This document shows, one piece after another, positions 1 to 55,138 of a stretch of DNA of 64,000 bases. This DNA is from Marsupella aquatica. Lineage: Eukaryota; Plantae; Marchantiophyta. A model generated the notes under the pieces. That model worked only from the letters and a program-made list of their open reading frames with translations, ran no database searches and was not told the origin of the DNA. The DNA lies in contig OZ316892.1 in NCBI GenBank assembly GCA_973895155.1, positions 15,977,040-16,041,039 on the forward strand, in the 5' to 3' direction. Within the stretch, counting starts at the first letter, position 1. Each line of letters opens with the position of its first letter. The translations under genes were made by a program, and so were the position numbers.

Positions 1-1820
1 AGAAGTCATAGCACAAGCAGCAGCCTCTACTTTCTCCACCAAACCCCCTAGAAAGCAAAACATGAAGGCTTGGTTTGACGAGGATTGTGCTAGAGCAAGG
101 ATGCAAGCAAGATCACATTCAGGGGAAAAGAGACTTTTGGCATTCACTATGTACAAGAACTTCATCAAACACAAGAAGAGGTGTTTCTTGAAGAGTCATC
201 AACAATCACTATGTGAGGAGTTCATCAAATATCCAAAACGTTTTTGGGAGAGAATGCAATCAGGCAAGACTACTCCCCCCTTGGATCACCAGGACCTGGT
301 AACTATGTCACATCCTTGTATTTCTTTCCAGATGCTAGTGGCATGCCTTTGCCCTTGGGGACACCATTCAGTTTACAGAGAGGGAGGTGAAGGTGCATCT
401 TTCCCACATGCAACATGGGAAAGCTAAAGATCTGTTGGGCCTGAACTTGGAGCTTCTTTTGTGGGGAGGACCCTCTTTACTAACAAACTTGGTGCATGAG
501 CTGAATCAAGCAATGGCTTTAGGTTTACCTAAAGCTTGGATGACCAGAAGAGTGGTGCCTATCTTCAAGGCAGGCAACAAGGACGATGTGCACAACTACA
601 GAACCATCATGGTAGGCAATACTTTTGCTAAAGTTTTGGGAGGACTACTTGAAGCCAGATTAAGCTCTTGGTTGGAGAGTGAGATGAAAAGGGCACCTTC
701 ACAAGCAGGTTTTTAGGAGAGAATTCAGCACTATGGATCACATTCTCTGCTTGAGGGTGTTGTGTGAAAAGGCCAAATCTCCACATAAACCATTATTTTG
801 CTTGTTTGTGGACTTCTCCAAGGCCTTTGACAAAGTTTCCCGATCCAAGCTTTGGGATAGGATGGTGGAGTTGGAAGTGCCTGAAGAGCTCAGGTTGGCT
901 GTTTCTAAATTGTACCAAGAAGTGCGCATCAAACTTTCAAAGGAAACCTCTGAAGAAATCTGGAGCACTCTTGGGGTGATCCAAGGTTGTCCTCTCTCAC
1001 CAACTCTCTTTGGCATCTTCATTGATCAGCTACACAACATTTTGGAGGAGCATGGTGGAGTTGGCACTCAATTGGGTAGGTTTGTCCTCCAACTTCTTAT
1101 ATTTGCAGATGATGTGGTCCTACTTGCTCATGCTCAAGAAGCTTTGCAAAGACATCTCAATGCCTTGGAGGAGTTTTGTCAAGCAACAGGGATGGTAGTC
1201 AACCTCAAGAAGACCAAGTGTTTGGGCATTGGCACACGACAAAATCCAGAGCTCTACTTCCAAGGGAATCTGGTGGAATTTGTGAGGACCTACAAATACC
1301 TTGGGGTGGAGTTCTCTCAAAACTTGAGTTGGGCCTCATGTGTAAAATCTAGGGCTGCCAATGGGTACAGAGCTTTTATGCATTCATGAACAAATGCAAA
1401 AGAGCTGGTCTACACACTTGGAGGTTAAGGAAACATCTCTTTGGAGCTTTGGTGAAACCAGTCATTCTTTATGGAGCACCAATTTGGGGAGCAGGTGTGT
1501 CTAAATCTGGGTGGCAACAGATTGAGGGGCTGCAAAAGCTATTTCTTGAGATGGAGCTTGGGATCAAGTCACAAACCCCATATGCACTTACACTTGCAGA
1601 GGCAGGCTTGTTTCCTTTGGAGGTGGAGGCACTCTTCCACACACTCAAATACATCATGCGTGTAAGAGAGTTGGAGGGAAAACAGATTTCCTTTTCATGC
1701 CTTGCGCTCATCTTCAGCTAAAGGGTGGTATGCAGATGTGTGCAGGTGGGCCCATGCTTGGGATTTTCCTGAACATGAATGGCCAACACACCCAACCAAG
1801 CTAAGAGCAAAACTTGAGCA
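1..1820 (+). pseudogene. LINE family A ORF2 fragment (reverse transcriptase region), frameshifted
   Basis: ORFs 62-427, 387-716, 733-1389 and 1386-1721 together give RT motifs (FVDFSKAFD, GVIQGCPLSP, FADD, YKYLG). Nearly identical to the reverse complement of ~52373-54193. Confidence 0.95.
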
Positions 1821-3481
1821 TTAGATACCCTGGCATTAAAGTCCCCCACTATCCATGTCTCCCCTAGTGGTGATATATCATGAATGACTTGGATTAACCT
1901 ATGAAATGGATAATGTGCATCAGCAATTCCCATCTTATAGACATTCATATTAAGGGGAGCAAAGTAGGTGACAATCAGAAATGATGGAGTACCTCTGGTA
2001 TGAAGTCTCACCACCATGAACTGCTTGCTGGGATCTTCATATTCAATAGAGGTGATGTGTTGAAGTTGATTCTTGGTGTAGACAGCAATGCCTCCAAACC
2101 CTCTTCCCCTTGTGGTCTTCTTCTCATTGAAGATGGATTGTATGCAAGTAAGCCTTTAATGCTAGGTAGAGCATTTCCCTCATATTCCCAAGTCTCCGTG
2201 AAAAGCAAGATGTCAAAATTCTCAAACAAAGGTTCCCCTCCAATTGCTGTTTCTATGGAAAGTCCTGAAACATTCCATGCCATGACTCTCAAGGTCCCAA
2301 TCCATCATTTAGAAACAACTCTCTTCTTATTGGTAACAACAGCTTGTCCATTGCGCAAGTAGGCTACCAATCCTTGGTCTTTGGCTACCCTCACCTTCTC
2401 AAGCTCAATTTTCCTTGCTTGGACTTGTGTGGGAGTCAGATCATCATCCAACCAAATCCTTAGCCCTTTAAGCATGCTCCTGTTAGCCATCACTCTAGCT
2501 TTCTCGGATTCAGCTGCAAACTTCACCAAGATTGGACGTGGAAGGTCCCCCTTCTTTTGCCCAATCCTATATGCTTGCAAAATGATAGGGTCATGCACTT
2601 TCATCTGAGATTGGAAGAATGAAATTGCTACCTTCTTGGTGTCTTCCTTCTCCTCCTCAACAAGGCCTGATATTTTGCAGTTGCTGACTCTTGCATGCTG
2701 GTTCTTGTGTTCTTCTTCTAGTGCTCTCCTCTCCTCCTCCTTGGCTTGGACAAATTCCATATGTGATTGTTTTGCAGCCTGTGCAAAGGTTTTGAGCTTC
2801 TCCTCAATCTCCCCTACAGCCTCATGTATCACTGATTTCTCTGGGCACATACTCTTCTCCATGTCTCCAAAACACGATGCAAGCAATGAGAGTTGCTTAC
2901 CATTCTCCTGAGTTTGAGATCGAAGATCACTAATCAACCTCTTTTGCTTGACATTCTCATTCTTTAGCTCCGTCACCTCCTTGCTGAGCGTGGTAATCTC
3001 AATTGTGGAGTTTTCAGCCACAACTAAGATTTTCTCAAGCAAAGCCTTGAGATGGGCAATCTCCTCCGTTGCCATCACAAAGCTGAAACTGTTGTTAGAA
3101 TGTACTCTTAGACGACAAATAGAAATTGGGAGCAGTAGAGGATGTCAGTTGCAGCTCTACCTTTGCCAGTGATACACTCTCGCTGTTTGCAACACTCTGC
3201 CAAAATCTGAGCTCAAACCGCAGCCGATTGCCCTTCCAACTCGAAGTGAAATTTCGCCCCAAGCTCAGAATCCCGAAATTGGACACGTAGCAGATCGTGC
3301 ATGCTAAAGTGCATACCAAACGATGTCGGTTGCAGCTCTAACTTTGCCAGTGATACATTCTCGCTGTTTCCAATGCTCTGGCAAAGTCTGAGCTTAAACC
3401 GTAGCCAATTTCCCTTCCAACTCGAAGTGAAATTTTGCCCCAAGCTCAGAATTGCGAAACTGGAGACGTAACAGATCGTGC
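1821..3481 (-). mobile_element. LINE family A 5' part (5' UTR monomers, ORF1, start of APE endonuclease), inverted relative to 1-1820
   Basis: Near-identical direct repeat of ~54656-56315. APE N-terminal motifs MRVMAWNVSGL, FTETW and IVGDFNAR. Confidence 0.95.
2305..3078 (-). CDS. LINE ORF1 protein (coiled coil plus RRM-like nucleic-acid-binding domain)
   Basis: Intact 257-aa ORF directly upstream of the APE. Heptad-rich N-terminus followed by ISGL.E, AYRIG, PRPILVKF and IWLDDDLT, typical of LINE ORF1. Confidence 0.85.
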   Translation of the reverse strand: MMATEEIAHLKALLEKILVVAENSTIEITTLSKEVTELKNENVKQKRLISDLRSQTQENGKQLSLLASCFGDMEKSMCPEKSVIHEAVGEIEEKLKTFAQAAKQSHMEFVQAKEEERRALEEEHKNQHARVSNCKISGLVEEEKEDTKKVAISFFQSQMKVHDPIILQAYRIGQKKGDLPRPILVKFAAESEKARVMANRSMLKGLRIWLDDDLTPTQVQARKIELEKVRVAKDQGLVAYLRNGQAVVTNKKRVVSK

Positions 3482-3577: not shown

Positions 3578-5987
3578 TCAGCAGACGGGGAGACTTGAGA
3601 TGCAAGCTTGTGCAATGCTGATGACACCGTTTGATGAGGGGAACCCAACTTTCTTCACTCTATTTTGACACTCATCTCTCTCGGAACTACCGCCAAATGA
3701 CGCGTTGCACTGTGGACCGGCCCCAAATTTTGATGTCCGATGCAGATGCCATGAACCTTGCATGACTTCTGTTTCAAGAACTGGAGATTGGAGCGATGTC
3801 TGTTGAAGTACAGTGGGAGCGCTTTGTGGGTATTGTGTTGAACGTGATTGATGTCGACCCTGCAGTGTCCTGAAATCATTATGTTCTGCATCCCTCGAAT
3901 CATCATTTCCTGAGAGATTGACAATGGAAATGTCATCAGGTTTCTTCCGATACGGAAGCAAACATTGTGTGGTGCAGATTTTTACGCTTGAGTGATCTGG
4001 TATTTGGCGATGTGATAAGGACTGTGGGAGTCTTGTGGCGAGACAATCCCAGTTGCAGGTCCTTTCCTCTTGACAGACTATTACAACATCTCTGTTGAGA
4101 GGAACGCTTCTCTCCAAGTCAAACTCAGCTGCATTGGAGAGGAGCATGTTCATCGCATCCTCGAACAACTTTGGGGAACCTGCCTGGTCAGCTGAACGGA
4201 AAGCCAATTCCCATATTGTAGGACCTCTTCCTCTACTCAATCCTTTCCGATATGCGGTATATGCTGCAACCTGAGATATAGCTCAATTCTGATCCATTTC
4301 ACATGCCTCGAAGAGCCCAACTTTTTTTTATTACCCATGCTTTCATTCCTGCGTGAACAAACTCTGATCCAGTACAGTTAGGAATCCTAGCGCCTTCTTC
4401 AGCACTTTTGTTCTGGAACAACAAAGCATAAACACTAGTAAGAATCCGCAAAACATACTAGCGCTAGGCGCTAGGCAGAACATTTTGACAAAACCATCAA
4501 TATTATTGTGTAATCACATGTTTATGAAAATAAACAGGTCAATATTTGAGAATCAATGACATTATTTGGATTCTTTGGATGGAATGTTGAGGAATGTCAT
4601 CTGAAAAATGTACTTCTACAAAGGAATCTCACTTGCATATTACTAGCGCCAGGCGCTAGTACTCACCAAGCGAATAAAATTTCCCCACTGCCTCCAACGC
4701 ACCACCCACCATGATATCCAACTCTGAAACATTTGGAGCTTTCTAGGTAAGCAGTTACCCGACTGCCACCATAGGTCCGTCCTCTCCCGTTCAAGGTTTG
4801 GGTGCCCTAAAAAAACATTTTGGAATGCTAACCATCCGGCTTGGGCATGAATGGTCATTCATTTCATGACATCCGGCTTGGGCAAAAGATCCACCCCAGA
4901 CCCATGGCCTTTGGAAGTCATCTTAAATATGTGAGGTCTGTCTTCTTGAGATCCTTGACCTGGAAGGATGTACCTCTGTAGAAAAGGCATGTTGATATTC
5001 TTTTGATATTCTTTTGATATCGAACAAGAAAACCCAACTCTCCACGGCCTTTCTGGTCCTGCCTAACACTCCAGAATAGAGATGCAAACTTCTGTGGAGT
5101 AGAAACTATCATTAGAGACTGGAAAATCTGTCTCTCCGATATCTTCAATCTCACCCAGGCTCTCACACAAAGACTGTACAAAAGATCCTGTCGCTAGATT
5201 TTTAATCCCGTCAGGCGTCCAAGTCGGATTGCCTTCCAATTTATTTTTTATGACATCTTCAACTACCTTTTCCGCACTCCGAGAAAATACCTTACGACAA
5301 GGATGGTTGTGGGTACCCATATGAATCACAAGGCGAGACATGTGACTATAGGTATCTGAGTCAAGGAGAACTTGAGGATACATATAAATAGTCTTGCAGA
5401 GTATGCCTCTACAATAAAAGGGAGCTGCTGGCAATAATGACAAACAACTCCACCTTGCTCAATGAACGATCCAACACGGTGAGAGCCTCCAAGTTTTGGG
5501 GTACCAGCCCATGCCTTTGCATTCCTCCTCTTCTTTCGGCGAAAGTAGTCACAAGTTTTATTCTTGCACTTAATAAATCCAGTACAAGTAACTTTACCGA
5601 ATTCCCAGTATTTCCCGACAATGGAGGCAACTAAAACACTACGTTTCCATTGTACTTTGGAGGCAAACAAGGTACTTGTTCATGCCGGAAGTTTCCAGCC
5701 GAAATGAACCTTGACAGTTCGCTGGACCCACTTGACTTGAGCAGCGCGTCCATTGCACTTCTTCGATATACAATATGGGATTGCGATGATGGCATCTCCT
5801 CTTTGACCAAGACCATGTCAGGCACCAAAGGCTCCACAAGGGGGATCCTTGGTGGCTCCTCATCGTCACTATCGGAAAGAGTAACTACATCCACCAGATC
5901 CCTCTGAGGGGATTGCCGATCTCCTTGATTTGGTTCCCGAATGACAATGGAGTAGCGCAACCCAGCATTAAGGTGCCAGAATCTCAC
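3578..5987 (-). pseudogene. Putative MULE-type transposase with GCM/WRKY-like zinc-binding domain; catalytic core apparently deleted
   Basis: Broken ORFs give CTGFIKCKNKTC, CHYCQQ and RLVIHMGTHNHP, then KMTSKGHGSGVDLL, WISWWVVRWRQWG and RGRGPTIWELAFR. One GT-AG intron at ~4413-4666. Frameshifts and stops present. Confidence 0.55.
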
Positions 5988-7181
5988 GCCATCATCGACA
6001 TCAAAAAGTGCAACAGATTCAAAGCCATTGGCTTTCGTTCCCTCCTAAACGATTGCCTCTATGTCATTCATGCACAAATCAAACCTTCGACAAAGATAAA
6101 CCTCACTTATTTGCTTGTACCTTTCGGCCACAGACACTGGAATGGAAACAATGTCACCGGTGGACATACGGGTAACTACGATTGACTAAGACATCACAGA
6201 AGCCTTGGAAGCAAATGAGCGCAGGAATATTATGAATCAAAATTCCACCAGCAAGGACTGTTCCCTAACAGTTCCCTAAAGCCGTTATAATAAGACAATC
6301 CTCTGACACCATAAATGTATTTTGTCGTTATATCAATATCATTTATGATCAACGTCATTTATAATAAACGTCATTTAGGAAGAACCTTTTTGTTCTAGAA
6401 ACATCAGATGATGAATAGCGTCAGGCACTATTAAAAACAATCCAAAAGTAGAGGCCCATGCAGAGTCAATTTATGTGTAGCGCCCGACGCTATTAATAAC
6501 AATCCAAAAGTTTAGGGTCCGTCTAACGTCAATTTGTGTATAGTGCCAGGCGCTAATAAAAGCAAATGACATAAAACAAATTCCTAAAGGAGACACTGGA
6601 TGATTAGCGCCAGGCGCTAATATTAATTTTATTCATATTATGAACGTATACAATGGTAAAATTTGAAGTAGGAGCCTGAAGGCTGAAAAAGCTTTGTTTT
6701 TTGCTAGCGTCGAGCACTAGTTTTCTTTTGTATCAGAAATATGAGAAAACCGGGTTTTGGGGAAAGTAATGGCGTATTAACGCCTCTTATGGCTCTATAT
6801 TGAATTTCCAACTGGCGTAAAAATTGAAGACTTTAGGCCTTGGAAATTACTAGCGCCCGACGCTACTATTTGGTGAGTAAAAATGAATTTGATATATTCT
6901 CAGGTTTTCCTTTCAATGGTCATATTCAACGGTAACTATAGGTTGCGTGACCCTCAATACATTGATCCTCTTTGGTGTTGTCGAATAAGATAATGACATG
7001 TGTCACAGATCCAGGCCAGGGGTTCAGTTTCCTTAGCGTATATGTCATGCTCTGTGCTCCGGATTCTTCTTATTTCCCATGTTAAGTACAGTACGATTGA
7101 ATCTGTGTGACGGGTTTTTGCCGTTTGTGGTATGGAAAGAGCGCGATGGTTGTCAGTACTTCCTTTGCCCTTGTGCGAACA

Positions 7182-10100
7182 ATGGACCCTGCCTTCTCTT
7201 CCTCTCAATGCTTTAGTGGAAACGGACACAGAGAGGTCGTTCCCTCGCAAACATCTGAGTGCTCATTTTTAGGATCTGTGTATAGTCATCGAGTGACTCG
7301 ATCCACTGCTTCGCGAGCTCCTAAAGCACAACCCGTTGTATCATTCCCAAAGAGCAAGAGAGGGAAGATGGATGATTCTGATTCGTTTGCTGTGGAGGAC
7401 TTCAGAGAGACATCGCTTACTATTTATGATGTGATCTCCAAACACATTATGTCGTTTGGAAAAGATTTTTGAGGACATGACAAGGATCCGCCAAGGATTC
7501 CAATGTGCCGACTACTTCATATGGAAGTAGTGCGGACATTACAGAAGGGAAGTCCTTCGATAGAGAAGCTGAAAGACTCCTTTCAGAGCACAGGATACAA
7601 TTCTAAGATTGGCATGTTGTTTTACGTTCAACCAACAGATTCCAATGGAGAAGTCCAAATCTGCACACTAGAGATTCGTGCTTCCTGGGATGCAATTTGG
7701 GTTGCAGAGAATGAAAAGTTTGAGGCAGAATGTGCTGTAGACCCTGACTTTGCAGTTTTGCAGGATAAGATGTTTTCTGTGTTTGATGGAAACCATCAAC
7801 TCTATGCATGGTCCATCGTCACGAAGGAGAATCCGGATGATGTTAAATACCATCCTCGCGTCCAATGCACAATATTCAAGGGAGAAAAGGGGTCCTTGAT
7901 CGAGATTGAGATGGTGATGCACACTGTTAACCAGTAAGTGTGTCTTCCAACATATTTCTATTCTAATCTATGATCACAGTGTTTCACTAGCGCCAGGCGC
8001 TACTGACTCCCTCTCTTGTTTTCAGGCTTGGGCAGGCAGTGGTCGAACCGTCTTGGATACTTGACGCAGACTGTATCAACCAAATTCTCTCAAATGAACT
8101 CGATTACTACAAGTCTATCATTGATGATGCAAACTTCAAGAAGTTTGGACAAATCATGCAGAAAACACGGAAGGGATCGTGGTATACGAAAAAAATGCCT
8201 CAAGAAGCACTTATGTACATCTTGTGTGAGAATAAGATCAAGTCTTATTCTTGACAGTTTAAGATGGATCTGGAACATGCTGCCTCTCAGGGTACACCTT
8301 GGTCTCCCGGAGAGATTTCAAAAAGACATGCAACGATGATGAAGGAGGCAACAAAGGATTGGGCTATAAAGGTGTCAAAAATCACTCCTCTATTAAGCCT
8401 CGCTTTTGAGGATTTCATGCGAACATGTGCCAAGATGTACCTCCTCATAGAGAAGAATAAGAGAGAGAAGAAGCCGGATGCAGTTGTCTGTACAATGGAT
8501 CGAGCAAGATTGTTTACCGCTGTCTCTACCCTCAACCCCAAGCTGAGGAGTACCCTTCTGGTTGCCCATTGTACACCGGAGCTGAGGAAACAATTCTTCC
8601 ATCCATAGAGCGTTAATGACAATCCAGTGAAGCAATGGTGCCATACCTGGCAAACTTGGAACATTGTGGAGGGAATCGCTATTGGTTTGCTGCAAACCTC
8701 CCTACGCCAGGTCAGTGATATAGTTCCCGCCAATTGGTTGCAGGAGTGGGAGTGTAAGTCAATTGAATCGCTTATTGAAATAGTCTCAAATGATTTCAAG
8801 AAATTCGGGGACGCTGTGGAAGGCAAGTTTTTTAATACAATGTGGCCGTCCAAGTATCTCGACAAGGCTGACTACACCCTCAAGAATCAGAAGAGGGCCA
8901 AACGATACCTGTACCATTTCTTCATGCATATGGAGATTGTGAAGCCAGATTACTTTTGGGCATACCCTGCTACTTTCCAAAAGTGGATCGTTGTTCCCGA
9001 AGGAGACATATTGGCCGACGTGTATTCAATGTATCCTGCTGAAGGGTGTCTTCCACCAAGGAAACTATCAGAATGGGAGAGAATTCATTGTCCTTGGTAT
9101 TTGGACACCGATAGATGGGACTCTCCATTCGGAGACACTGAGAAAGACGCATTTCATAAGCTTTTGAAGTCTCAGGTCCCTCCCAAGTTTGTGTCAGACA
9201 TGAAGCAAGTAATCGAAGGTGATGTGAGCAAGTCGGCAGCAGAATTGCAAACGGTGTGCAAAACTACGGTTGTTCATGTTGATCAAAGTTGCAAACCCAG
9301 AGCCAAAGTAAAAACCAAAGCGGCGGCACCGAGTACCTCAACGCAGTCCGCCAAAAAACGTAAGTTGTCATTCAGCTTGTAGCTTCACATTTTGGTTAGC
9401 GCCAGGTGTTGCTATATGACTATGTCTCTTGGTTTGTTTTTTCAATTGGTTTGGACAGCGTTTGGCGCTATTATTCAGCATTGAATAAATTTTGCTCTTT
9501 TTCCTTTATGTGGGAGAAAGTCTGACGCTGCAACCAACGAAACAAAAGTAGATGCCACTCCAGAGCCTTCCGAAGCCAATACCGGTGCCCAGTCAGACCC
9601 AGTAACTGCAATTGACAAAGTGAAAGAGATCGTCCCTCTTGATGCAACCAGTACAAAGAAGAAGAAGAAAAGGGCAATTCAAGCTGGAGAATCGTCCCGA
9701 GATGATGCCGTTGGAACTGGTGTTCAGAGAGATGTGGGAACCTTCAAGAGTAAATCTTCTAGGCATTGCATGGTGGAAACAAGTATCCAAGAATTTATTG
9801 ATACTGCTTTCAACAAAGCAACGAAACCAGATTGGGTGACTGATGCAAAGAATTGGGGAAAGGACTTAATCAAGTCGGATTCCTGAGAAAAGGGAGTAAT
9901 CAGAGGAGGAAAAGAAAGATCGTTTGGTGTCAATGCAGGATTCATCTATCTTCCTACTGGACTTAAACCTATGCTCATGGACCGTCGGGTTCCAAAGTGG
10001 AATGTACCAGACCACACAGTTCCCAATTAGTCAAAGTCAAAGTCAAATTCTAAGCTCCACGACGACCCAATGAGTCAAGGGAGCTGTGGCAAAAAAGCCA

Positions 10101-11068
10101 AATACAAAGCAAAGAAATGAGTCAAATGCTCATGTGAGGATCTCTACATCCTCACTAATAACAAACTAAGGACCTTAAGAGTCACTAATGTGTAATGCTA
10201 TCACATCGTTTTCTATCCACTGCCATGATATACAATCCAAGTTGCTTTGGTGGCAACCTAAATAGATCATGCAGATCAGAAACAAGGATTTGATGTGCTA
10301 TTTGAACCTCCTCATACCGTCTACATGCTATGAATACATGATATTCATTCTCAATGCTGCCACTATCACAAAGTCTACACACCCTATCCTGCCTCCTAAT
10401 TCCCTTCCATCTACCTTCCTCTACCTCCAAGTGATGTGAGCTGAGTCTATATCTAGCAATCACTTGTCTCAACCTCATAGAAATGGGAGCTCTAAGATAC
10501 TCTTGTTCTTCATACAACATCATGGGGTTTACATCCCTCATAAAATACTGTAATCTAGGGCTAGGATCACTCCAAAGTTTTCTAATAGCTTTATCACGCG
10601 ACCCTTTCTTCAAAGCGACCCTTTCCTTTCTGATGATGGCATGCTTGCGATCTTGTATTCGGATGACCATGATCAGGTCTTGCAGGTCATTTCAGCATGC
10701 CAGCAGTCAAAAAAGTTCCATTGTGTCAATTCTCACAATGTCGTCATGTCTATGCCCATGTATAGAGCAAAGAACGATATTCAGGTACAGATCATTCCAT
10801 CTCTTGTTTATTGTTAGCATTCGGCGCTAATTTAGTCTTTGCTGTAGTTCTCAAAACATTACCCGTCGGTTGATAATTTTAGCCAACGTGTGCGATGCGT
10901 GCAGGTATTTACCCTCAGGCTAGACATATTTTGTCGGACTTCTTCAAAGGAAAAGGTACCAAAGGATCCAAGGTTTAAGCCTCTATCAATAAGTGAAGAT
11001 CCTTCGATCTCTAACTTGATTGGGCTCCCAACCTTGAAGACAGATCATTGCCTGGAGTTGGATTTTGT
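7182..11068 (+). pseudogene. ParB/Srx-like domain plus amino-methyltransferase-like gene, copy 1 (5' part, truncated by an LTR element)
   Basis: One reading frame through in-frame stops. Intron 7934-8025 (GT-AG) restores frame; further introns begin at ~9360 and ~10785. Contains FSVFDGNHQLYAW and later FGVNAGFIYLPTG. Confidence 0.65.
10029..10599 (-). mobile_element. LINE family B 3' fragment with (TTTGAC)n tail
   Basis: ORF 10185-10670 encodes YRLSSHHLEVEEGRW...CRLC...ENEYHVFIAC, homologous to the family A ORF2 C-terminus. Absent from the duplicate gene copy at ~16655. Confidence 0.9.
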
Positions 11069-14000
11069 TGGGGAGTTGATTTCATGTCGAGGGAGATTCA
11101 GAGAGTGGCCAGACTATTTACCACTTGCCTTGATGGTGGACAGACTAACGTGTAGTTCAGTCACAGGATATGCGCCAGCTGAGTTGATGATGGGACATTT
11201 GCCCTTGATGCCGATTGAGGAGGACGTGAAGAGCTAGAGAACGATTGGATGGAGAGACCATGTCAGTCGTAAGGAGTTGCTTGCTACCAGGATTGACCAT
11301 TTGAATCAGACACCTGAGAAGGTTCGAGAGGCGTTAGAGAGAATGAGGGTGGCGCGCATGAAGAACAAGGACTACTTTGACCGGAAGCATCGAATTTGAC
11401 CACGAGCGATTGAGGAGGGCAATTGGGTGCTTATTTATGAGAGCAACCTTGAAAATCAGCATTCTATGGAGAAGAAGTTTGCGCAGAGGTGGCAAGGACC
11501 GTTTGTAGTGATGAGGATTCATCCCAATGCCAATTACTCCATTTGAGAACTCGACAGAACGGAACATCATGGCAGTTACGCCGGCAAGAGAGTGAAGATT
11601 TTCAAGCGAAGGCAGCAAGAATTGGAGGACACCTTGGAGGATTTTGATGGTGAACATGGTGAAGATGCAGTTCAAGAGAGTGACATTCGTGGCGAAGAGA
11701 AATGATTTTTGAGTCTTGCTTGTCTTGTTTATTTTGATTGTAGGAATCTGGAATTGAGATTGAGGGAAGTAGAGAGAGATAAAATTAGAACTTTATTCAT
11801 ATGATAGTTTAGTTGAGAGTTAAGGAACTTATTTGGATTTAAAATTCTGGTTTAGAGTTTTCCTATGATATGAGTTTTGGTGGAAGAATGTTTTCACCTT
11901 TAGAATTGATGAGAGAATGTAGACTTAGGCTTATGTTATCATATTAGGGTTTATTTTTGCTCATTTTTTTTAGATTCATTTAGAGTACCATTATTGGTAA
12001 TGGGAGATTATGTCAGGTTGTTCATTGCTTGGCTTGAGGTTTACTCGACTCGGTTCAACTCAGGTCAGGTCAGGTCACTCAGGCTCATGGATCATGTAAT
12101 TTGAGATGGGACTCCGGAGATGATGGTGGTGTAGGCCGGAGGCTACACAGGTTTGGTGGGGGTGAATGTCATCGGGAAAAATGTTTGACAATTGAAGTGG
12201 AGTGTGCTGGATCTAGTCGACTTGCTTTTTTCCGGCTCGGAATGTAATAGTTCTCTGTTTGTGAAAGAAAGAAACAAAGAGGAAACTGAACTTGAGATGA
12301 AGGTTAGTGAGACAAAAGAGGAATAAAAGGATGAAAGTTGAAGCTTAGGCTTAAGGAATTTGAGGCATTTAATGTAGAAGTGACATATGGCGGCCTGGGA
12401 GTATTCGAATTCATAAGGACATGTTGGAGATGGCAGTTAGAGGCGCAAAGTACGTTAGAGGGATTCACGGGAAGACAAATGAGACGAGGATGGGAGAAGG
12501 AATTGAGAGCTTGAGGATCGTGAATGCTGTTGGGAAGTATGTTTTTCAGGTGATAGAGGAGAGAGTCGGTAGCTGTGATGTTGTGTGAGCGATGTGTGAG
12601 TGGCGAAAGTTTTATTTTGGGGAGTAAGGAATCGTTTCGGATATGGCAAGGATCGATGGGAGATAGTATCGAATGGAAGCAAGGAGGTAAAACTTGGAAT
12701 GCTAAAGACGAAGGAAGATAATAAGGAAATCAGGCACAAAAATGAAGTTCGGGTGAGTGAAGAGAGTGAAGCTGGGGGTGGTGATTGCTGTGAGATAAGG
12801 ACTTTTGGAAGATTGAGGTGAGGGAGAGGTGATGCTGAGGTCCGAGAAAAAGGGATAGCAGGGAGATCATGGTCGTTGTGAAGATTTTTCTTTCGAGTGA
12901 AAGAAGGAAAAGCTAAGATTGAAAAAGAATTTTGAATGCGAGATCTTTAAAGCTGAGTTCGGGGAGCAAAAATTGTAAGAAATAGTAGACTGAAAGGTTC
13001 CGATGGAGAATTGAGCAGAGGCTGAATTCAGGAGAATCAGTGGAGTGGGGAGAAGAAACAAAGAAAGTTGACGACGAGAGAAGCAAAGCTATGGGGAGTT
13101 CGTAAGGGAAAAAGGAAGATAGTTGATTGGAAGAAAACGTTTCTTGTTGAATGCTGTTGATCTTGTTTTTTGGATGAATGTTACAATGATGAGTTTTTAG
13201 GGAATTCTTGAGTAGAGGCTGCGGCACACGATAGTTTTAGAAGATTTTGGAGAAAGAATGAAAAAGGGGCCTTGTTGCTGATCGTTGATGCTGATGGAAA
13301 AGTTTACATGCTAAGATTCAGGTGAGGAGAGACAGGAACGAGCCGGGCGCTAATGGGTGAAAAGGAGGGATCAGCCGAAGTGGAGTGTTGTTGTAGTGTG
13401 GAGGTCTTGAGAAATTTTTGGGTGAAGGCGGAGGCTTACAATTGAAATTGGAAAGAAGAGAGTGAGAGCTAAGAAACAAAAAAAGCAAAGATCGTGGCAT
13501 AATTCAAAGGCAATGGCGCGTTGGCGGGTTAAAGCAAAAATCAGAGAACTGGATAGGAATTCAGGGATGAAATTTTTGGAAATTCAGGAGTGAAGGCTGT
13601 TGCACGCGAAAGAGGTTCGGAGAAGATGAGAATGAAGTAATCGAATGTTGTTAGTTCTTTTTGTTAAGAGATTATTTGTGGGATTTTTGAGAACGAAGGA
13701 GTAAGGAGTCAACAGACCAAACGCCCAGGTCTTCAAGGAACTTTGAGAAGTGCTTAAACAGACAAGGAAATGTTATTTTAGTGTTTAGGACAGAAGTTGA
13801 GATCGAGGGAGAAAAGTAATTGAACAATTTGAGAACGTGAGGAGACTGACTTGCCAAACGCTAAAGGAATGAACTTTGTTGCGATCAAGAAAAGAAAATC
13901 TGGAGAAGTCTTATGAGCTGACAATCAATTTACCCTAAGGAACACGGATTTGAGTGAAGCAAAAGAGAAGGGACTCTGTCAAAAATAAAATAAAATTGAT

Positions 14001-15014
14001 GTGATAATTTTGATAAGGCATCCGAGAAGAATGCAAGGTAACTGAATACTAAAAAGATGAAGGCAAAGGACCCTTGTGAAGCTTCGACTGATGAAAACAG
14101 ATTGGGAATGATGAGTTCATTCAGAATGAGCCGCGGACCGTTTAAGAAGTGAAAACATAAAGTTTGAACTTGAATGAGACTAGAGGATGCCCTTAAGAGA
14201 AGAGATGGGGCTTTTCATGGAATTAATCAAGAAATTCCAACTTGAATTATGGATCACCCCGACCACCTTAGATTTTTTGCCACAGCTCCCTTGACTCATT
14301 GGGTCATCGTGGAGCTTAGAATTTGACTTTGACTTTGATTTGATGTTGTGTTGTGAATTCAGAATAAGGAAGTTGACTACATTCGACGAGTGGAACCCAG
14401 TGATTGGATCCATCTTTAGGTTAGGGATAGTCCGTTGCCATGGGGTATGAGGATAGCGGCCGTAAGTTCTTTTTGCTATGGGACTGGAAACTTGAGGAGA
14501 GAAGGAAGAAGAGCCAAGAAGAAGAGTGTAAGAGGAGCGACGACGTGAAGGAAGCTCGGCGGAGACTAAAATTGTGTCCAACATGTTTGGGGGAAACCAT
14601 CGATGAGCTTGAGGCCGAGACCTGACCTGATGATTGAGCTGAGTTTAGTGGAGAGACCTGAGTTAGGAGATGAGCCACCAAAAAACACTTTGTAAACCCG
14701 AACCAAACTTCATATTTTGAGAATGATTGAAATAAAAAGTTGAGTTTGGATTATTTTATGTGATCGAAATGATGAAATGCTCTTGTGGTAAAAATGTTTA
14801 ATTGTTATGGAAATGTGAGTGATGCGTTGAATTTAGATGAAAGTAGAAACTTAGCATTTTAAGTTAAAATAGCTTAGTGTAATTTCGTATTAAAAATGGA
14901 AACTGAGTAAGGTTAAGAAAGATTAAATCAACTTAAGAAAATACCATAATAAATCTGAGTCCCTAAAAACATTAAAAGTCTTCTTTTATACCACTTTAAA
15001 CTGGTCCCCGGACA
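11069..15014 (+). mobile_element. Ty3/Gypsy 3' fragment: integrase C-terminus, PPT and 3' LTR (12167-15014)
   Basis: WPDYLPLALMVDR...GYAPAELMMGHLPLMPIEE; PPT GGTGGGGGTGAA followed by TG at 12167. Homologous to the minus-strand copy at 29311-32393. Confidence 0.85.
14273..14340 (+). mobile_element. LINE family B extreme 3' end (~70 bp)
   Basis: TTTTTTGCCACAGCTCCCTTGACTCATTGGGTCATCGTGGAGCTTAGAA(TTTGAC)n matches the end of the 10029 copy. Confidence 0.85.
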
Positions 15015-17929
15015 CCGTTGTCTCTGCCCTCGACCCAAGCTGAGGAGTACCCTTCTGGTTGCCCATTGTACACCGGAGCTGAGGAAACAATTCTTCCATC
15101 CACATAGCATTAATGACAATCCAGTGAAGCAATGGTGTCGTACCTAGCAAACTTGGAACATTGTGGAGGGAATTGCTATTGGTTTGCTGCAAACCTCCCT
15201 ACGCCAGGTCAGTGATATAGTCCCCGCCAATCGGTTGCAGGAGTGGGAGTGTGAGTCAATTGAATCGCTTATTGAAATAGTCTAAAATGATTTCAAGAAA
15301 TTCGGGGACGTTGTGGAAGGCAAGTTTTTTAATACAATGTGGCCGTCCAAGTATCCCGACAAGGCTGACTACACCCTCAAGAATCAGAAGAGGGCCAAAC
15401 GATACCTGTACCATTTCTTCATGCATATGGAGATTGTGAAGCCAGATTACTTTTGGGCATACCCTGCTACTTTCCAAAAGTGGATCGTTGTTCCCGAAGG
15501 AGACATACTGGCCGACGTGTATTCAATGTATCCTGTTGAAGGGTGTCTTCCACCAAGGAAACTGTCAGAATGGGAGAGAATTCATTGTCCATGGTATTTG
15601 GACACCGATAGATGGGACTCTCTATTCGGCGACACTGAGAAAGACGCATTTCATAAGCTTTTGAAGTCTCAGGTCCCTCCCAAGTTTGTGTCCGATATGA
15701 AGCAGGGAATCAAAGGTGATGTGAGCAAGTCAACGGCATAATTGCAAACGGTGTGCAAAACTACGGTTGTTCATGTTGACCAAAGTCGCAAACCCAGAGC
15801 CAAAGTAAAAACCAAAGCGGCGGCACCGAGTACCTCAACGCAGTCTGCCAAAAAATGTAAGTTGTCATTCAGGTTGTAGCTTCACATTTTGGTTAGCGCC
15901 AGGCGCTGCTATATGACTATGTCTATTGGTTTGTTTTTTCAATTGGTTTGGACAGCGTCTGGCGCTATTATTCAGCATTGAATAAATTCTGCTCTTTTTC
16001 CTTTAGGTGGGAGAAAGTCTGACGCTGCAACCGACAAAACAAAAGTAGATGCCACTCCAGAGCCTTCCAAAGCCAGTACCGATGCCCAATCAGACCCAGT
16101 AACTCCAATTGACAAAGCGAAAGAGATCGTCCCTCTTGATGCAACCAGTACAAAGAAGAAGAAGAAAAGGGCAATTCAAGCTGGAGAATCTTCCCGAGAT
16201 GATGCCGCTGGAACTGGTGTTCAGAGAGATGTGGGTACCTTCAAGAGTAAATCTTCTAGGCATTGCATGGTGGAAACAAGTATCCAAGAATTTATTGATA
16301 CTGCTTTCAACAAAGCAGCAAAACCAGATTGGGTGACTGATGCAGAGAAATGGGGAAAGGTCCTTAGTTTGTTATTAGTGAGGATGTAGAGATCCTCACA
16401 TGAGCATTTGACTCATTTATTTGCTTTGTATTTGGCTTTTTTGCCACAGCTCCCTTGACTCATTGGGTAGTCGTGGAGCTTAGAATTTGACTTTGACTTT
16501 GACTTAATCAAGTATCCCGGGAAAAGGGAGTCATCCGAGGAGGAAAAGAAAGATCATTTGGTGTCAATGCAAGATTCATCTATCTTCCTACTGGACTTAA
16601 ACCTACGCTCATGGACCATCGGGTTCCAAAGTGGAATGTACCAGACCACACAGTTCCGAGTTCTTTCTTGAAAGCGATGGACCCTTTCCTTTCTGATGAT
16701 GGCATGCTTGCGATCTTGTATTCAGATGACCATGACCAGGTCTCGCAGGTCATTTCAGCATGCCAGCAGTCAAAAAAGTTCCATTGTGTCAATTCTCACA
16801 ATGTCGTCATGTCTATGCCCATGTACAGAGCAAAGACCGATATTCAGGTACAGATCATTGCATCTCTTGTTTATTGTTAGCGCTCGGCGGTAATTTAGTC
16901 TTTGCTGTAGTTCTTGAGACATTACCCATCGGTTGATAATTTTAGCCAAATGTGTGCGATGCATGCAGGTATTTACCCTCAGGCTAGACATATTTTGCCG
17001 AACTTCTTCAAAGGGAAAGGTACCAAAGGATCCAAGGTTTAAGCCTCTATCAATAAGTGAAGATCCTTCAATCTCTAACTTGATTGGGCTCCCAACCTTG
17101 AAGATAGATCATTGCTCGGCATTGGATTTTGCTGGGAACGCCTGTCTTTTGGTTGGTTTTATGCAGTCGGTGATAGAGCTTTTTACTCTTCCTGGAGATA
17201 TTGTCCTTGACTGGACTGTAGATTCAGGAAGCACATTCATTGCTGGTGATTTTTCTGGTCGTTTCATGATTGGGTTGGAAAATAGGCGTGAGTTTGTTGA
17301 GACTGCATCAAGGGTTTTCTTAGAACTTGTTGATCCCAAGCATGTTCCGATATTGCCTCGTCCTGTGACCAATTTAAGTGGTCGCAGAAAGAAAGATAGG
17401 CTTCGTTCTGTTCTCAACTTTGATTCCGATGAAGAGGAAGGTACCTCTGGAGACGTCGAAGATGACACAGAGAAAACCCAGGAGGAAGATTCTTCGGAGA
17501 AGAGCGAAGACTAAGACGAGTAATGTTCTTCCAATAAGCTTCTTTATCCTTTCAAGTGTTGTTGACAATTCTGGGTTCTTGCTCTCTTATCCCCTAAACT
17601 TATATTTTTTTCCGTTTTACTGGATCAGGTCAGAATGGAATCTGAGGAAGCATTTCCAACTCCGGAGGAGACTAGCTAGGAATGTAATTGTCACTCCTAA
17701 GAAGCCATTTGTTTTGCCCTCATACGCTGAAAATTTTGCTAGGAGGGTTGACAAAATTAGAACGCTTTGTTGGGAAACAAAAGGTCTACGTCTTCAGAGG
17801 GGAGCAGACAGAAAGTTCATGAGAAACCCTTATATAGATGATGTTTCCCAAAACAAGTACATTGATGACAAAGCCGAGTCCAAGGACAGATCTGAAAGCT
17901 CCGCATCAGAAACATCTGATAGTTTGTAG
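15014..17929 (+). pseudogene. ParB/amino-methyltransferase-like gene, copy 2 (duplicated middle plus complete 3' end)
   Basis: Duplicates ~8517-11068, then continues to VIELFTLPGDIVLDWTVDSGSTFIAGDFSGRFMIGLE (SAM-binding motifs X/I/II of beta-class N4/N6 MTases) and an acidic tail. Introns at ~15857-16006 and 16848-16968. Confidence 0.7.
16357..16505 (+). mobile_element. LINE family B 3' end (~145 bp)
   Basis: Matches the family B 3' UTR and tail; absent from the duplicate at ~9860. Confidence 0.9.
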
Positions 17930-19572
17930 GTAGCAATGGGGTTTTCTTGAAATACGTCATTTAATGTTTCAATATGTAACCATTTTGATGAATTGGCCGA
18001 TTTTAAGCCCTTTCAAGTTTTACTAGCGCCAAGCGCTCCTCAAACATACTGTCACTATTATATTTTTATTTCAGATTCTTGAAGTGTGAGTTGTGAAGAC
18101 GTGTTCTCAAGTGCAATATTGGCTAGCGCCGGACGCTTCCCAATTTTCTAAGGGTTCTTTGGTGTGGATTCTTTCCGGACTGTGGTTGCATAATGTTTTG
18201 GTTTCCGTCCAATTTTGTGGTATTAGGTGAACTTGCGGGAACGGTCATGGATCTTTGCACCTAGATGGCTTCCGAAAAGACCCTGATTGGGAGGAGGCTG
18301 GAATAGACGATGGTTGTCTAGTGGGATTAGAGTAGTAGCGCTAGGCGCTACTCAAAGGTTTTGGTTAATTATAACTGAGTTAAATAGCGTTCCGAGATTG
18401 AACATTTCATAACCCCCTTCATTAAATATCCTCCGAGAGTGCAACTGGTACAAATTATAGACTCTTCACAGCGCCCGGCGCTAGCAATAATCGTGGAGAG
18501 TTCCTACCGCTACGAGTTTCTTATATTTACTCTTGTTTTTTTTTGTGTCTTTTGTAAACACCTCGCCTTTGGCGCTAGTTTTACCAGCGTCGGGTGCTAC
18601 CAGTTTTGTTTTTCAAAAGTAACTTTGCAGAAAAACATGCAGGAAAGAGCCATCCATTTTCCTGTTACCAGTCTTTTTCCGTGTTACCAATTTCTGTTAT
18701 GAATGTCTGTTTCCTGTTTTCCTGCCTTTTGTAAACACCTCGTAGAGGACACCTACCTAGCAATCCTACTGCATTCCCCGAGAGTCATTGCATGTTGCAA
18801 TATTCGTCAATCATTTTCTTCACTCCTGATAGAAGAATATAACATCTGTCTAGATCCCTGGGATTGATGACCTCCTTGTCATCAAGAACCTCAACATCCA
18901 CTTGGTGCTATCATTGTCACGATTAGGACACGCCTCTCGAAATAACTTAATCTAATCGTGTCTCTTTAGCTTCTCCGGCAAGGTCATTTTCTCCAACGGC
19001 TAGGTTATTCGTATCGGCCTGATGACTTATGTAAGGTCTATTATCTAAATTGGGTAGGTTCCCAATTGTATTTACATTCTCAATATTGGGCATATCCTCG
19101 ATATTGGTACAAGCTTTAGCGGGTCCTTCAATGACCGGCTCTCCCTTGTCCCCTCCAATGCTGGCTTGGTTTTGTCCCTCGGCTCCTCTAGTACATCCCC
19201 TACTTTTGTAGTTCTAACTCAAATACAAAGTTGGGAACCTTATTATGTGGTGGTGATGGTGATAGAGGCTTAGTGGCTTTTCCTTTATGTCCTCTGTTAA
19301 CCTGATGGAGCTGTAGAGCAAGCTCTCACAACGTTACTGTTTGCTCATCCATCCTAGAGTTGATTGGCCAAGCCTTTTCATTGGTCTCATCGGCCACTAA
19401 ATCCCTCTAACCAATTACCACTTCATAATCCATGCGTACCTGATTTGCCTTGGTCTTGTACACCTCCAACTCTACTTCTCCAAATTCCATTGGTCCTATT
19501 CCCTTGTCCGCTTGACCCACTCAACGTCCAAGTTGGCTTGAGCTACCTGCGCTTCTTCCATTTGGGCAAAAA

Positions 19573-19826
19573 TCAAAGTCAAAGTCAAAGTCAATTCTAC
19601 GCTCCACGATGACCCAATGAGTCAAGGGAGCTGTGGCAAAAAAAAGCCAAATACAAAGCAAAGAAATGAGTCAAATGCTCATGTGAGGATCTCTACATCC
19701 TCACTAAATACAAACTAAGGACCTTAAGAGTCACTAATGTGTAATGCTATCACATCGTTTCCTATCCACTGCCATGATATACAATCTAAGTTGCTTTGGT
19801 GGCAACCTAAATAGATTATGCAGATC
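19573..19826 (-). mobile_element. LINE family B 3' fragment
   Basis: Near-identical to ~10031-10277, including the GTCAAA tail. Confidence 0.9.
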
Positions 19827-27259: not shown

Positions 27260-27780
27260 AATGACCATTAACTCCTATAATACACACTTGCAACACTTTT
27301 TAGAGTGGTTGGCACAAAAATTTAAAAATCTGACCAAATCACCATTAACTTTTGTAATACACACTTGCGTCACTTTTTAGGGTGATTGTTTTGCAGGGCA
27401 AAAAAAAACAAAAAATCTGATCAAAGAGAAGGAATAAACCAAAATTTAAAAAATCTGACCAAGAGAATGAATAAATAGTGACCCCCACTTTTTAGAGTGA
27501 TTGTCATACAAAGAGAAGGAATAAACCAAAATTGAATTATATTTACTATGAAGTAAATAGTGACCCCCACTTTTTAAAGTGATTGTCATTAAAAAATCTA
27601 CCAAGAGAATGAATAAACCAAAATTGAATTATATTTAGTGTGAAGTAAATAGTGACCCCCACTTTTTAGAGTGATTGTCATTCAAATTTGCAAGGCACAA
27701 AAATTAAAAAATCTGACCAAGAGAAAGAATAAACCAAAATTGAATTATATTTAGTGTGAAGAAAAGTGTGACCCCTTTTC
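27260..27780. repeat. Degenerate AT-rich tandem repeats (~80-120 bp units)
   Basis: Recurring CACTTTTTAGAGTGATTGTC, AAAAATCTGACCAAGAGAA and GAATAAACCAAAATTGAATTATATTTA blocks. Confidence 0.8.
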
Positions 27781-32393: not shown

Positions 32394-33533
32394 TGTCCGG
32401 CTGACCGTGTTTTCTGGTAAGAGTATGTTGGCTCTTATGAAGTTAACTTTGCATGCCCATAAATTCTATACTAAATCCAAAATGATAATTCTAGTAACAA
32501 GGGTAGTGGATATTAAGAAAGGTTCAGGTGAAACTAAAATACTGTTAAACCCTACTTCACCATACTTGCGGACCAACACATCACGGAAATTAGTTTTCTT
32601 ACGACATATGATCCTAATATCTCCAAGAGAAAATGAAACAGGAATATCATCTGGACTCCCATTCAAATCCATGACTTCAATAAAGGACAAAGATAATGCA
32701 CTCCCACTCTTCTCGGTATGACACTACTGGGTATACTATTGGCTTGTTAGAAGCCATAACAGCAGTTGCAAACTGAGCTCCAAAATGATAGGTTAACTGT
32801 TGCCTCATGGATGGTTTGTCTAAAAGATGGACTCTAATCAAAAACGGATTACGAAGGGAAAGATCAGGGATAACTCTCTCTCCTGGATTCATGATGACTC
32901 TCCTATTCCTTTGCTATCCGGGCCAAAGGATGCCTCACTCCTAAATTCTCAAAGAAACCTTATTCCCTAAGGTCCCATCTATAAGACTACCTCTCATTCC
33001 TTTGCTATCCAGGCCAAAGGACGCCCCACTACTATGTTTAAGGCGCAAAGAGCTTCACAACCTTGAATGATAAACACTGCGGAATGAGAGGAGAGTGCCC
33101 CTCACCACTTTATTTATAGTGCACATCAAGAGGGCATGGATCAAGCCCAAGCACTTGGATGAAGGCCTTGAAGTGGCAAGCATCTAATACCTAAGAGTGT
33201 GTTAGTACTGTTCATAGTTGGTGAAACTACTTTTAGTAGGTGGAACTACCATGCGTTGGTAGAACTACTATGTGTTGGAGGACCTACTGTGCGTTGGTGG
33301 ACCTACTGTGCATTGGTGGAACTACTGTGCGTTGGTGGACCTACTATGCATTGGTGGACCTACTATGCGTTGGTGGACCTACTGTGCGTTGGTGGAACTA
33401 CTGTAGTCCGTTAATATAGCTAAAGAATTTAATAAAGTTTAAATTTAATAATCTAACTACTAAACTACTTATATAATCTATAACCTATTAAAACAAATAA
33501 TTTTTTTATAACTTAAGAGAAAATCACGACACA
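32394..33533 (-). repeat. 3' LTR of a second Ty3/Gypsy element (~1.14 kb) with internal ~20-bp tandem repeats at ~33215-33405
   Basis: TG...CA termini, PPT GGTAGGGGTGA on the minus strand adjacent at 33534, and CTATAAATA on the minus strand at ~33111-33119. Confidence 0.75.
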
Positions 33534-34909: not shown

Positions 34910-34917
34910 TATAAAAG
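34910..34917 (+). promoter_or_regulatory. TATA box in LTR (TATAAAAG)
   Basis: Canonical TATA ~117 bp upstream of the ATG at 35027; the equivalent is at ~44987 in the 3' LTR. Confidence 0.6.
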
Positions 34918-55126: not shown

Positions 55127-55138
55127 GGTCCCAATCCA

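Follow-up and report, generated by a model that had tools for sequence, protein, structure and literature searches.

A decayed, apparently Mutator-like transposon, probably from a seedless plant, lies with its divergent cargo gene in the 64-kb stretch of DNA analysed here (the window), and we found that its own non-coding DNA is dotted with copies of one 15-bp palindrome, TAGCGCCNGGCGCTA. Related cargo families have different palindromes in comparable locations, and the cargo protein combines a ParB-type domain with a methyltransferase-type domain. We lean towards reading the palindromes as parS-like docking sites for a dimer of the cargo protein, in a VANC-like anti-silencing system run by a protein unrelated to VANC.

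Structure of the element and distribution of the palindrome

The layout of the element is given in Table 1. We infer that its right end lies near 18785; a contig of run X1 with no other letters starts at 18756, and no TIR or TSD was seen at this end. The right-hand region also contains a short additional ORF at about 17630-17929. The transposase apparently lost its catalytic core through a deletion near 4720-4780: contig ends are loose at 4720 and 4775-4777, and the core of the transposase at the related locus L055 (FMADSAQ...CLFHW) gave no tblastn match in the window. The two genes are tied through an HxGxHNH stretch, in that HMGTHNH of the window transposase matches the L055 transposase over 13 aa (E 6e-5). 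Pfam scans gave no MULE match, only ZSWIM1-3 RNaseH-like at E 0.03, and it is from sequence motifs that we take the gene to be a putative MULE transposase.

Table 1. Features of the element in window coordinates.
Feature	Position	Strand	Remarks
Putative Mutator-like transposase gene	3578..6166	-	broken by stops and frameshifts, as seen in translation
Transposase exons	exon 1 about 6166-4667; exon 2 4412-3578	-	
Transposase intron (GT..AG)	4413..4666	-	palindromes 4459-4473, 4644-4658 (the latter within a perfect 21-mer)
Divergent intergenic region	6167..7181		palindromes 6416, 6478, 6541, 6605, 6705, 6851
Cargo exon 1	7182..7933 (start approximate)	+	disordered N-terminus and ParB/Srx-fold domain; motifs VR, DGNH[R>Q], MHxxN; in-frame stop at 7470
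Cargo intron 1	7934..8025	+	perfect palindrome 7988-8002
Cargo copy 1	8026..11072	+	helical region, methyltransferase N-half (split by insertion at about 10024-10603); truncated at 11072; palindromes 9397, 9456 (intron 2), 10815 (intron 3)
Retroelement-like insert between duplicated cargo segments	11073..15013		no palindrome copy at <=2 mismatches
Cargo copy 2 and methyltransferase C-half	15014..17514	+	duplicate of 8516-11072, 92-96% identical
Cargo copy 2, introns	15857-16006; 16848-16968		palindromes 15894, 15953; palindrome 16878
Right-hand region	17515..18785		palindromes 18024, 18124, 18336, 18469, 18585; extra 4-mismatch copy at 18563

At up to three mismatches the element holds 20 copies of the palindrome, which represent 17 independent sites because an internal duplication makes 9397, 9456 and 10815 the counterparts of 15894, 15953 and 16878. 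Across the 64 kb there are 10 copies with at most one mismatch (shuffle mean 0), 15 with at most two (shuffle mean about 0.03-0.07; none of 100 shuffles reaches 15) and 22 with at most three (shuffle mean 0.59). The initial annotation had raised the objection that the motif might be equally frequent in unrelated DNA, an objection that fails within the 64 kb. As a point against the docking-site reading, tandem arrays outside the element can score higher than local shuffles as well (at about 27300-27660, 10 compared with 7). Twenty of the 22 copies fall in the element's own introns, intergenic region and right end, which amount to 3,096 bp, compared with none in 7,451 bp of exons, a tally that rests on our own exon model; this agrees with the annotated figure of about 20 copies in non-coding segments only. 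The remaining two, at 13338 in the retroelement insert and at 40651 beyond the element, have three mismatches each and are at chance level, and in the rest of the window, about 49 kb, there is no copy at two mismatches or fewer. The placement annotated segment by segment held for the two copies in the transposase intron, the six between the genes, those in the cargo introns and the five on the right; the label 'subterminal' for the latter is only approximate, as the ends of the element were not found.

Only three copies are perfect 15-mers, and the longer perfect palindromes annotated earlier are indeed present (21 bp at 4641-4661 and 19 bp at 6603-6621). Likewise, variants are mostly of the annotated C>T or G>A type (23 of 32 mismatches), with eight of the other nine at the outermost base. 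This copy of the element is dead, and its sites carry 5mC-type decay. Other family copies have a perfect or closer word at 6416, 15953 and 16878, the first of these reading the perfect word (6421 T>C, 6427 A>G).

Palindromes in related loci

The window's word was searched in 80 related loci and found in none, and cargo-bearing loci yielded eight other palindromes, 12-22 bp long, with a near-diagonal table of loci against motifs. In a cross-scan of 25 hand-picked loci, for which loci, motifs and thresholds were chosen after earlier output had been seen, 11 had their own palindrome in 5-15 copies near or inside the cargo gene, nine had only one or two copies and five had no copy of any motif. 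Each of the motif labels that were placed on the tree is confined to a single cargo clade or a single row. The proposed check, that related families should carry different palindromes, thus came out positively, with the motif tracking the cargo clade where tested. A high-scoring 25-bp satellite (L031) and an array (L023) were left out of the family-motif count. Pairs with both sides changed in the L058 family were considered as covariation and rejected, because symmetric C>T/G>A decay makes such pairs and the scan let them through. When single pieces of the window's transposase or methyltransferase were used in tblastn against the 80 loci, almost no matches resulted; ORFs of L055 and L070 served as queries to find the transposases in these loci. 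Viral contigs gave no relative of cargo or transposase, and a search of genome contigs for a cargo-less relative returned two weak, uninformative matches and no control element.

Might the palindromes be by-products, left by drifting tandem repeats or by an independent MITE, or else hairpins or cruciforms that no protein reads? Many copies do lie within tandem units: those at 6416, 6478, 6541 and 6605 are spaced 62-64 bp apart, with 6416-6502 and 6478-6565 75% alike (TRF called no array at these units), and palindrome-bearing units of 51, 75, 127 and 138 bp occur in relatives. Perfect copies can also form small hairpins (-10 to -13 kcal/mol). Several observations nevertheless make this origin very unlikely. 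One word turns up in contexts that are not homologous to each other: in the window, the introns of both genes, and at L055 and L058, each with its own word, the upstream and intron arrays. Conservation in the L006 array is higher in the arms (0.98) than in the rest of the unit (0.80) or in the best other 12 columns (0.90). The 20 window copies show 32 one-sided changes and no compensatory ones, and copies at two mismatches or fewer are absent from the 49 kb of other window DNA. Column consensus falls from 0.88 in the arms to 0.46 in the flanks, indicating unrelated flanks (the matches were selected by motif), and no TIR, TSD or shared-internal repeat family surrounds the copies, which tells against the MITE origin that the initial annotation had named as an objection; there was also no Rfam match.

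A host transcription or chromatin factor recruited by the sites is the least probable reader that we considered. A conserved host reader might impose the TCGG-NN-CCGA core common to six of the eight related motifs, but the outer arms, together with core and spacer in two families, vary with cargo clade, and one assembly can hold several motifs (the contig names of L006, L025 and L037, for instance, begin with a common prefix).

Transposase, cargo and motif are co-inherited, so clade tracking cannot tell which of the two proteins reads the site. Binding by the N-terminal or zinc-binding region of the transposase, serving end pairing or an AtMu1-like self-activation, would account for the clade pattern equally well. 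It would also suit the five window sites near the right end and the two in the transposase intron, and the AtMu1 transposase is described as binding motifs and activating cognate copies, an example of a MULE transposase doing so by itself (10.64898/2026.08.24.746577). Yet AtMu1 binding, according to the same account, peaks at TIRs, whereas many sites here and in relatives are internal. At L055 each of the nine sites is found either no more than 1.5 kb upstream of the ParB exon or in the DNA preceding the methyltransferase exon; the transposase and the 2.8 kb past it have none. Sites also gather around the cargo gene at L006, L037, L038, L039, L053, L058, L070 and L071, all of them decayed loci with undefined ends. 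Site placement in relatives therefore favours the cargo as binder, and we regard the transposase as an unlikely one.

The cargo protein

The cargo gene belongs to a large, unannotated family, of which Riccia sorocarpa has at least 23 long paralogs; a word search with the window's methyltransferase half found no longer homologs. Folds were predicted for Riccia homologs that are about 27-35% identical to the window protein. The ParB-domain model of homolog P0155 has a pLDDT mostly above 83, and the cargo-homolog model matches the ParB fold of 7bm8 with Z 8.8 and rmsd 2.4 over 100 aligned residues. The best 12 VIA structure matches are to ParB, Noc, KorB, PadC or ParB-N domains at Z 7.0-8.8, although Z 7-8 is, by the structure-search tool's own note, commonly reached by unrelated models. 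Foldseek with the 906-aa model gave no match at E 0.001 or better. In an alignment of 43 cargo sequences the GxxR arginine is kept in 38, the VR arginine in 39 and the terminal N in all 43, while the window copy has Q at the GxxR arginine position. These boxes of a predicted nucleotide-binding domain are followed by a helical region which, in the model, may loosely overlay the DNA-binding half of ParB: whole ParB and Noc chains overlay the model to about residue 390 at rmsd 8-9, and a helix-turn-helix-like pattern is discernible by eye at model residues 186-222.

Cargo copy 2 with its methyltransferase C-half matches Pfam PF01555 at E 6.9e-6, and across cargo pieces and full-length homologs N6_N4_Mtase is the only credible Pfam family, with no VANC-type domain. 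Together with the ParB fold (Z 8.8 in the homolog model), this upholds the annotation of the cargo as a ParB-MTase-like protein. A homolog model, of low confidence in the methyltransferase domain (pLDDT 51), has a beta-class amino-methyltransferase fold resembling CcrM (6pbd, E 1.2e-9) and the Adineta N4CMT (8s9o, E 8e-8), and motif IV precedes motif I (near 17209-17235), as in the beta class. PHROG DNA methyltransferases match the cargo at E 1e-6 to 1e-5; the nearest phage methyltransferases are weak matches (E 0.006-1). Three phage genomes encode stand-alone methyltransferases of about 250 aa, with at most two copies of any palindrome, and are therefore no test of ParB fusions.

Canonical motif IV of beta-class methyltransferases is (D/N/S)-P-P-(Y/F/W). 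The corresponding position in the window is YLPTG (16581-16595). Possibly the cargo is an active amino-methyltransferase that, bound at the sites, deposits 4mC or 6mA on the element encoding it, in keeping with its resemblance to CcrM and N4CMT. The motif IV aspartate is retained in 25 of 26 matched related proteins (DLPSG, DMPTG, DLPTG or DMPSG), as it is in DVPFG of Adiantum and in DYPEN, DIPEN, DVPS and DIPW of related loci, and the methyltransferase exon looks constrained (17 of the 24 differences listed are synonymous). Activity nonetheless appears quite unlikely. Y replaces the aspartate in four of four runs of the window's family, with no majority alternative; S, T or E stands at the DPPY aromatic position in most relatives; and inactive transposon-borne MTase domains have a precedent in DIRS1, according to PMC4738411. 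The initial annotation had also suggested self-marking through CCNGG and GCGC in the core as methyltransferase target words. This part did not survive: with relatives lacking both words and YLPTG lacking the catalytic residue, self-marking by methylation seems doubtful from sequence.

Comparison with known systems

The arrangement resembles VANDAL elements, which as described in PMC5735166 are Mutator-like, carry an accessory gene and have family-specific short non-coding motifs, often in tandem. VANC21 binds such motifs, which lie in introns and in intergenic and terminal non-coding stretches, and their accumulation is attributed to tandem repetition (PMC5735166). However, the VANC motifs given there are 8-9 bp and non-palindromic (YAGTATTAY, AGTTGTCC), and Pfam and fold results set the cargo, with its ParB and methyltransferase folds, apart from VANC. 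Demethylation has been demonstrated for VANC (PMC5735166), while for the cargo anti-silencing would be a role proposed by analogy.

The CTP-gated DNA clamps ParB-parS, Noc-NBS and KorB-OB likewise combine a GxxR-boxed ParB fold and a following helical region with palindromic sites of 12-22 bp (10.1101/2025.10.10.680097), and clamps of the Noc and KorB type serve roles other than segregation. The cargo differs from these clamps in being eukaryotic, intron-containing and transposon-borne, in its size (about 1,200 aa, including a long helical insert and, at the C-terminus, a methyltransferase fold) and in the lack of a ParA family in a Pfam scan of 14 element ORFs. Phage and bacterial fusions of ParB with an N6/N4-methyltransferase, as presented in PMC4738411 and 10.1101/2025.10.10.680097, share its order of ParB first and beta-class methyltransferase last; such fusions, including those of ParB-terminase loci, are a plausible ancestor of the cargo, from which it differs in its degenerate motif IV and in its carrier, a plant DNA transposon. 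Where these two sources treat eukaryotes, they name ParB-HTH-MTases only in chlorophytes and chytrids, from a different MTase group, and credit land plants with few N6A-MTases. Marchantia DN4MT1 and bdelloid N4CMT also bring a bacterial-type amino-methyltransferase fold into a eukaryote, N4CMT being among our fold matches; yet DN4MT1 is a host gene with TSPPY (10.1101/2021.02.12.428880), and YLPTG or D-x-P-(S/T/E/F/W) stands in the cargo, together with a ParB domain. Our literature searches found no description of the present arrangement, and such proteins may be listed in the supplements to PMC4738411 and to the ParB survey on bioRxiv (10.1101/2025.10.10.680097).

Proposed mechanism and significance

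On the docking-site reading that we favour, a two-fold symmetric cargo dimer would read a two-fold symmetric site, with specificity drifting from family to family. NTP binding would shut the clamp, which could then spread from many loading sites across the whole element. The outcome, the least certain step, would be protection from host silencing that keeps the family's own copies expressed, much as VANC does, KorB-like self-repression also being possible; the methyltransferase domain may serve for binding or as a scaffold and not as an enzyme. The fullest version, which we put forward only tentatively, is that seedless-plant Mutator-like transposons captured a phage-type ParB-methyltransferase as a nucleotide-gated sliding clamp that loads at family-private parS-like palindromes, spreads along the element and shields it from host 5mC silencing; it would be the first eukaryotic ParB clamp.

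Self-recognition by transposons and their escape from silencing have been worked out in only a few flowering-plant systems, and how the VANC effect spreads over kilobases is left open in PMC5735166. If true, docking of an encoded ParB-type clamp at palindromes would represent a novel means by which a transposon recognises its copies and controls them. Such a clamp, loading at palindromes, would make load-and-spread a concrete mechanism, place a bacterial NTP-switch clamp in the plant nucleus and account for the control of an entire 10-kb element by a short motif. It would also supply at least nine natural protein-site pairs from which a recognition code might be read. The matched proteins and sites of the different families permit direct swaps and could become orthogonal DNA-targeting tools, and an unannotated cargo gene family would gain a testable target.

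Results

The palindrome TAGCGCCNGGCGCTA occurs 15 times in the window with at most 2 mismatches, against 0.07 expected and a maximum of 1 among 100 shuffles, and 22 times with at most 3 mismatches, against 0.59 expected. Twenty of the 22 fall within non-coding DNA of the element, in the same segments where the initial annotation had placed about 20 copies; by our own exon model this corresponds to 20 in 3,096 bp of non-coding DNA and 0 in 7,451 bp of exons. The remaining two (13338 and 40651) carry 3 mismatches each. Because an internal duplication of the cargo, the element's accessory gene, doubles three sites, 17 are independent. Only three copies are perfect, and C>T or G>A makes up 23 of the 32 mismatches, as the annotation had also said of most variants. 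Changes across the arms were one-sided in 32 cases and two-sided (compensatory) in 0. The palindrome pattern is a real feature. In contigs from four public sequencing runs, other copies carry a perfect or closer word at 6416, 15953 and 16878, and a recurrent G>A variant at 16887 accounts for 37-75% of depth. Divergent contig pieces align to the element in their thousands (run X1: 6,060), which is consistent with a multi-copy family, depth itself not being copy number.

Features of the window
Feature	Position	Strand	Remarks
Broken transposase	about 6166-3578	minus	One intron; core apparently deleted near 4720-4780
Cargo gene		plus	Divergent from transposase; three introns; part duplicated, broken up by insertions
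Cargo ParB domain	7473-7934		Atlas neighbours: fungal DUF3723 and cnidarian clusters at 0.95
Internal cargo duplication	8516-9863 = 15014-16360; 10604-11072 = 16663-17136
Palindromes			Transposase intron 2, intergenic 6, each cargo intron 1 or 2, right region 5
LINE copies	1-3481; 52373-56315		99% identity; segment 1-1820 inverted relative to second copy
Short repeat with AGTCAA-unit end	10029-10277; 14273-14347; 16357-16504; 19577-19826		Four insertions in or beside element; two near same point of duplicated cargo exon, in opposite orientations
GC-rich retroelement, presumably gypsy-type	34551-48615		Presumed gag-pol ORFs 38678-44661, flanked by direct repeats about 10.07 kb apart, roughly 4 kb each, with long ORFs inside
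Open frame, 462 aa	62034-63422	minus	Resembles a pogo-type DDE transposase
Tandem array, about 92 bp	27293-27659		Weak palindrome CACTTT-N2-AAAGTG, score 10 against shuffle maximum 7
Tandem array, about 19 bp	33199-33423
Tandem array, about 67 bp	60732-60973

As the first LINE copy fills the start of the window, the left end of the element lies out of view; the right end is presumably near 18785. The arrangement of this LINE suggests a recent insertion with internal inversion. A short HxGxHNH stretch ties the window's transposase to that of L055, a related cargo-bearing locus, whose core (FMADSAQ...CLFHW) we take to be Mutator-like, a label without Pfam confirmation.

Related loci comprised the best 80 of 146 confirmed relatives from one metagenome scan, many shorter than 2 kb. 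They form 54 nucleotide clusters, seven of which have an opposite-strand transposase upstream (L023, L039/45, L043/50, L055/56, L069/71, L070 and L073). The window's word was absent from the 80 loci at up to 2 mismatches and gave at least one match at 3. Once 24 near-duplicates had been set aside, an unbiased palindrome search of the other 56 loci again picked out the window's word (score 37, shuffle maximum 7) together with others, among them GGTGCC-N6-GGCACC in L006 (17 copies; 47 against 5), and a decay-tolerant search of 27 loci yielded further family palindromes. For a cross-table, nine motifs were scored on 25 loci; the choice of loci, motifs and thresholds was made after these results had been seen. 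Here 11 loci held 5-15 copies of one family word, a positive outcome of the check for different palindromes in related families that the annotation had proposed; nine held 1-2, and five (L020, L031, L043, L073 and L074) held none of the nine motifs. Off-diagonal counts were small, mainly reflecting the L037 word nested inside the L058 word, and the rest of the window scored 0 for each motif. TCGG-NN-CCGA is common to six of the eight other words, with differing outer arms. When 54 ParB domains were arranged in a tree, every labelled motif occupied one clade or one row (the later-found L038 and L044 words were unlabelled and L077 was excluded by length); since kin share labels, this pattern represents co-inheritance and is not proof of co-evolution.

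In related loci, sites precede the ParB exon and also occupy stretches that separate cargo exons; tandem units of 51-138 bp are frequent among them. A neutral or structural origin of such palindromes seems very unlikely to us, and within the unit of the L006 array nothing is better conserved than the arms (0.98 vs 0.80 for the rest; best other 12 columns 0.90). L031 (4844-6131) and L023 (12126-13137) have short-period satellites on the downstream side of the ParB exon, at the place taken by palindrome arrays in other families; these satellites may represent decayed arrays of sites or have no relation to them. In L006 (1123-1548) and L037 (527-1006), basic ORFs of similar appearance come before the arrays and the ParB exon, so these arrays may lie in a first cargo intron rather than in intergenic DNA. 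In the 20-kb L055, all 9 sites adjoin the cargo and none adjoins the transposase. Reading of the palindromes by the transposase has a precedent in AtMu1, but that precedent is TIR-centred (10.64898/2026.08.24.746577), and we consider this reading unlikely.

A search with the first cargo domain returned 224 representatives (E <=0.001); six of ten looked up were from Riccia sorocarpa and one from Adiantum nelumboides. The window's cargo exons align to the Riccia protein P0153 (1,207 aa) at 26-35%, and these relatives suggest that the window comes from a seedless plant. The N-terminal 480 residues of a model of another Riccia homolog, P0155 (123-sequence alignment), were mostly at pLDDT 60-98. 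Foldseek gave this model no significant match, its top nine rows being Noc or ParB (eight) and sulfiredoxin (one). When the 165 chains aligned by Foldseek were realigned with VIA, the top 12 rows were ParB-family chains (7bm8: Z 8.8, rmsd 2.4, 100 residues), and whole ParB and Noc chains, DNA-binding halves included, could be aligned as far as residue 390 or so, with an rmsd of 8-9. From these VIA alignments, the predicted ParB domain is well supported and an HTH is a candidate feature. DGNH is kept in at least 40 of 43 aligned ParB domains per position, the next R in 38 and the terminal N in all 43; the window's cargo has Q in place of that R. Atlas leads were DUF3723, cnidarian and ParB_N clusters. 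Our literature searches returned papers that mention DUF3723 together with Starship elements and none that pairs it with 'ParB'; several eukaryotic mobile elements may carry domains of the ParB type.

The cargo C-terminal domain matches PF01555 (E 6.9e-6), and its low-confidence model (pLDDT 51) matches beta-class amino-methyltransferases (e.g. CcrM, E 1.2e-9). To judge from its residues, motif IV is degenerate: among 26 matched proteins, 25 have D-(L/M)-P-(S/T)-G and one has DVPFG, and the window's family has YLPTG, where none of the four runs shows a majority alternative at the Y codon. With 17 of 24 listed differences in the motif IV exon synonymous, the domain looks constrained, yet is probably non-catalytic in the window's family. 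Active self-methylation by the cargo, despite its methyltransferase fold, is in our estimation distinctly unlikely. Many Riccia cargo fragments (P0151-P0201) bear the UniRef label 'Trimethylguanosine synthase'; their predicted fold points instead to beta-class DNA amino-methyltransferases.

Discussion

We favour, by somewhat more than an even chance, the cargo as reader of the palindromes, because the sites are two-fold symmetric with a variable centre, lack compensatory changes, are family-specific in sequence and accompany a resident ParB-family protein. Bacterial members of this family load at palindromes (10.1101/2025.10.10.680097), and the cargo protein would likewise read the element's symmetric sites. 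A host factor reading words that differ between families strikes us as hardly probable.

Docking of the cargo would probably result in anti-silencing of the element. We take this as the likely outcome since the arrangement of palindromes is that of VANC targets, which occupy introns, intergenic and terminal non-coding DNA and are built by tandem repetition (PMC5735166). KorB-like repression would be the alternative outcome (10.1101/2025.10.10.680097). For the preferred outcome, we infer cargo binding, nucleotide use, sliding and an effect on silencing. The likeness to VANC would lie in the way of working; the element is not a member of that group, its accessory protein being unrelated. With ParB the cargo shares the nucleotide domain and a candidate HTH, but no ParA was found among the 14 element ORFs scanned. 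Prokaryotic ParB-N6/N4-methyltransferase fusions have the same domain order as the cargo.

In full-text searches of non-subscription literature, judged by titles and abstract beginnings, we found no description of a plant Mutator-like ParB-methyltransferase cargo or of such palindromes. That the cargo serves, in a eukaryote, as a sliding clamp protecting its own element is a tentative prospect, on balance doubtful. The arrangement would be a new form of transposon self-recognition, assembled from bacterial parts.
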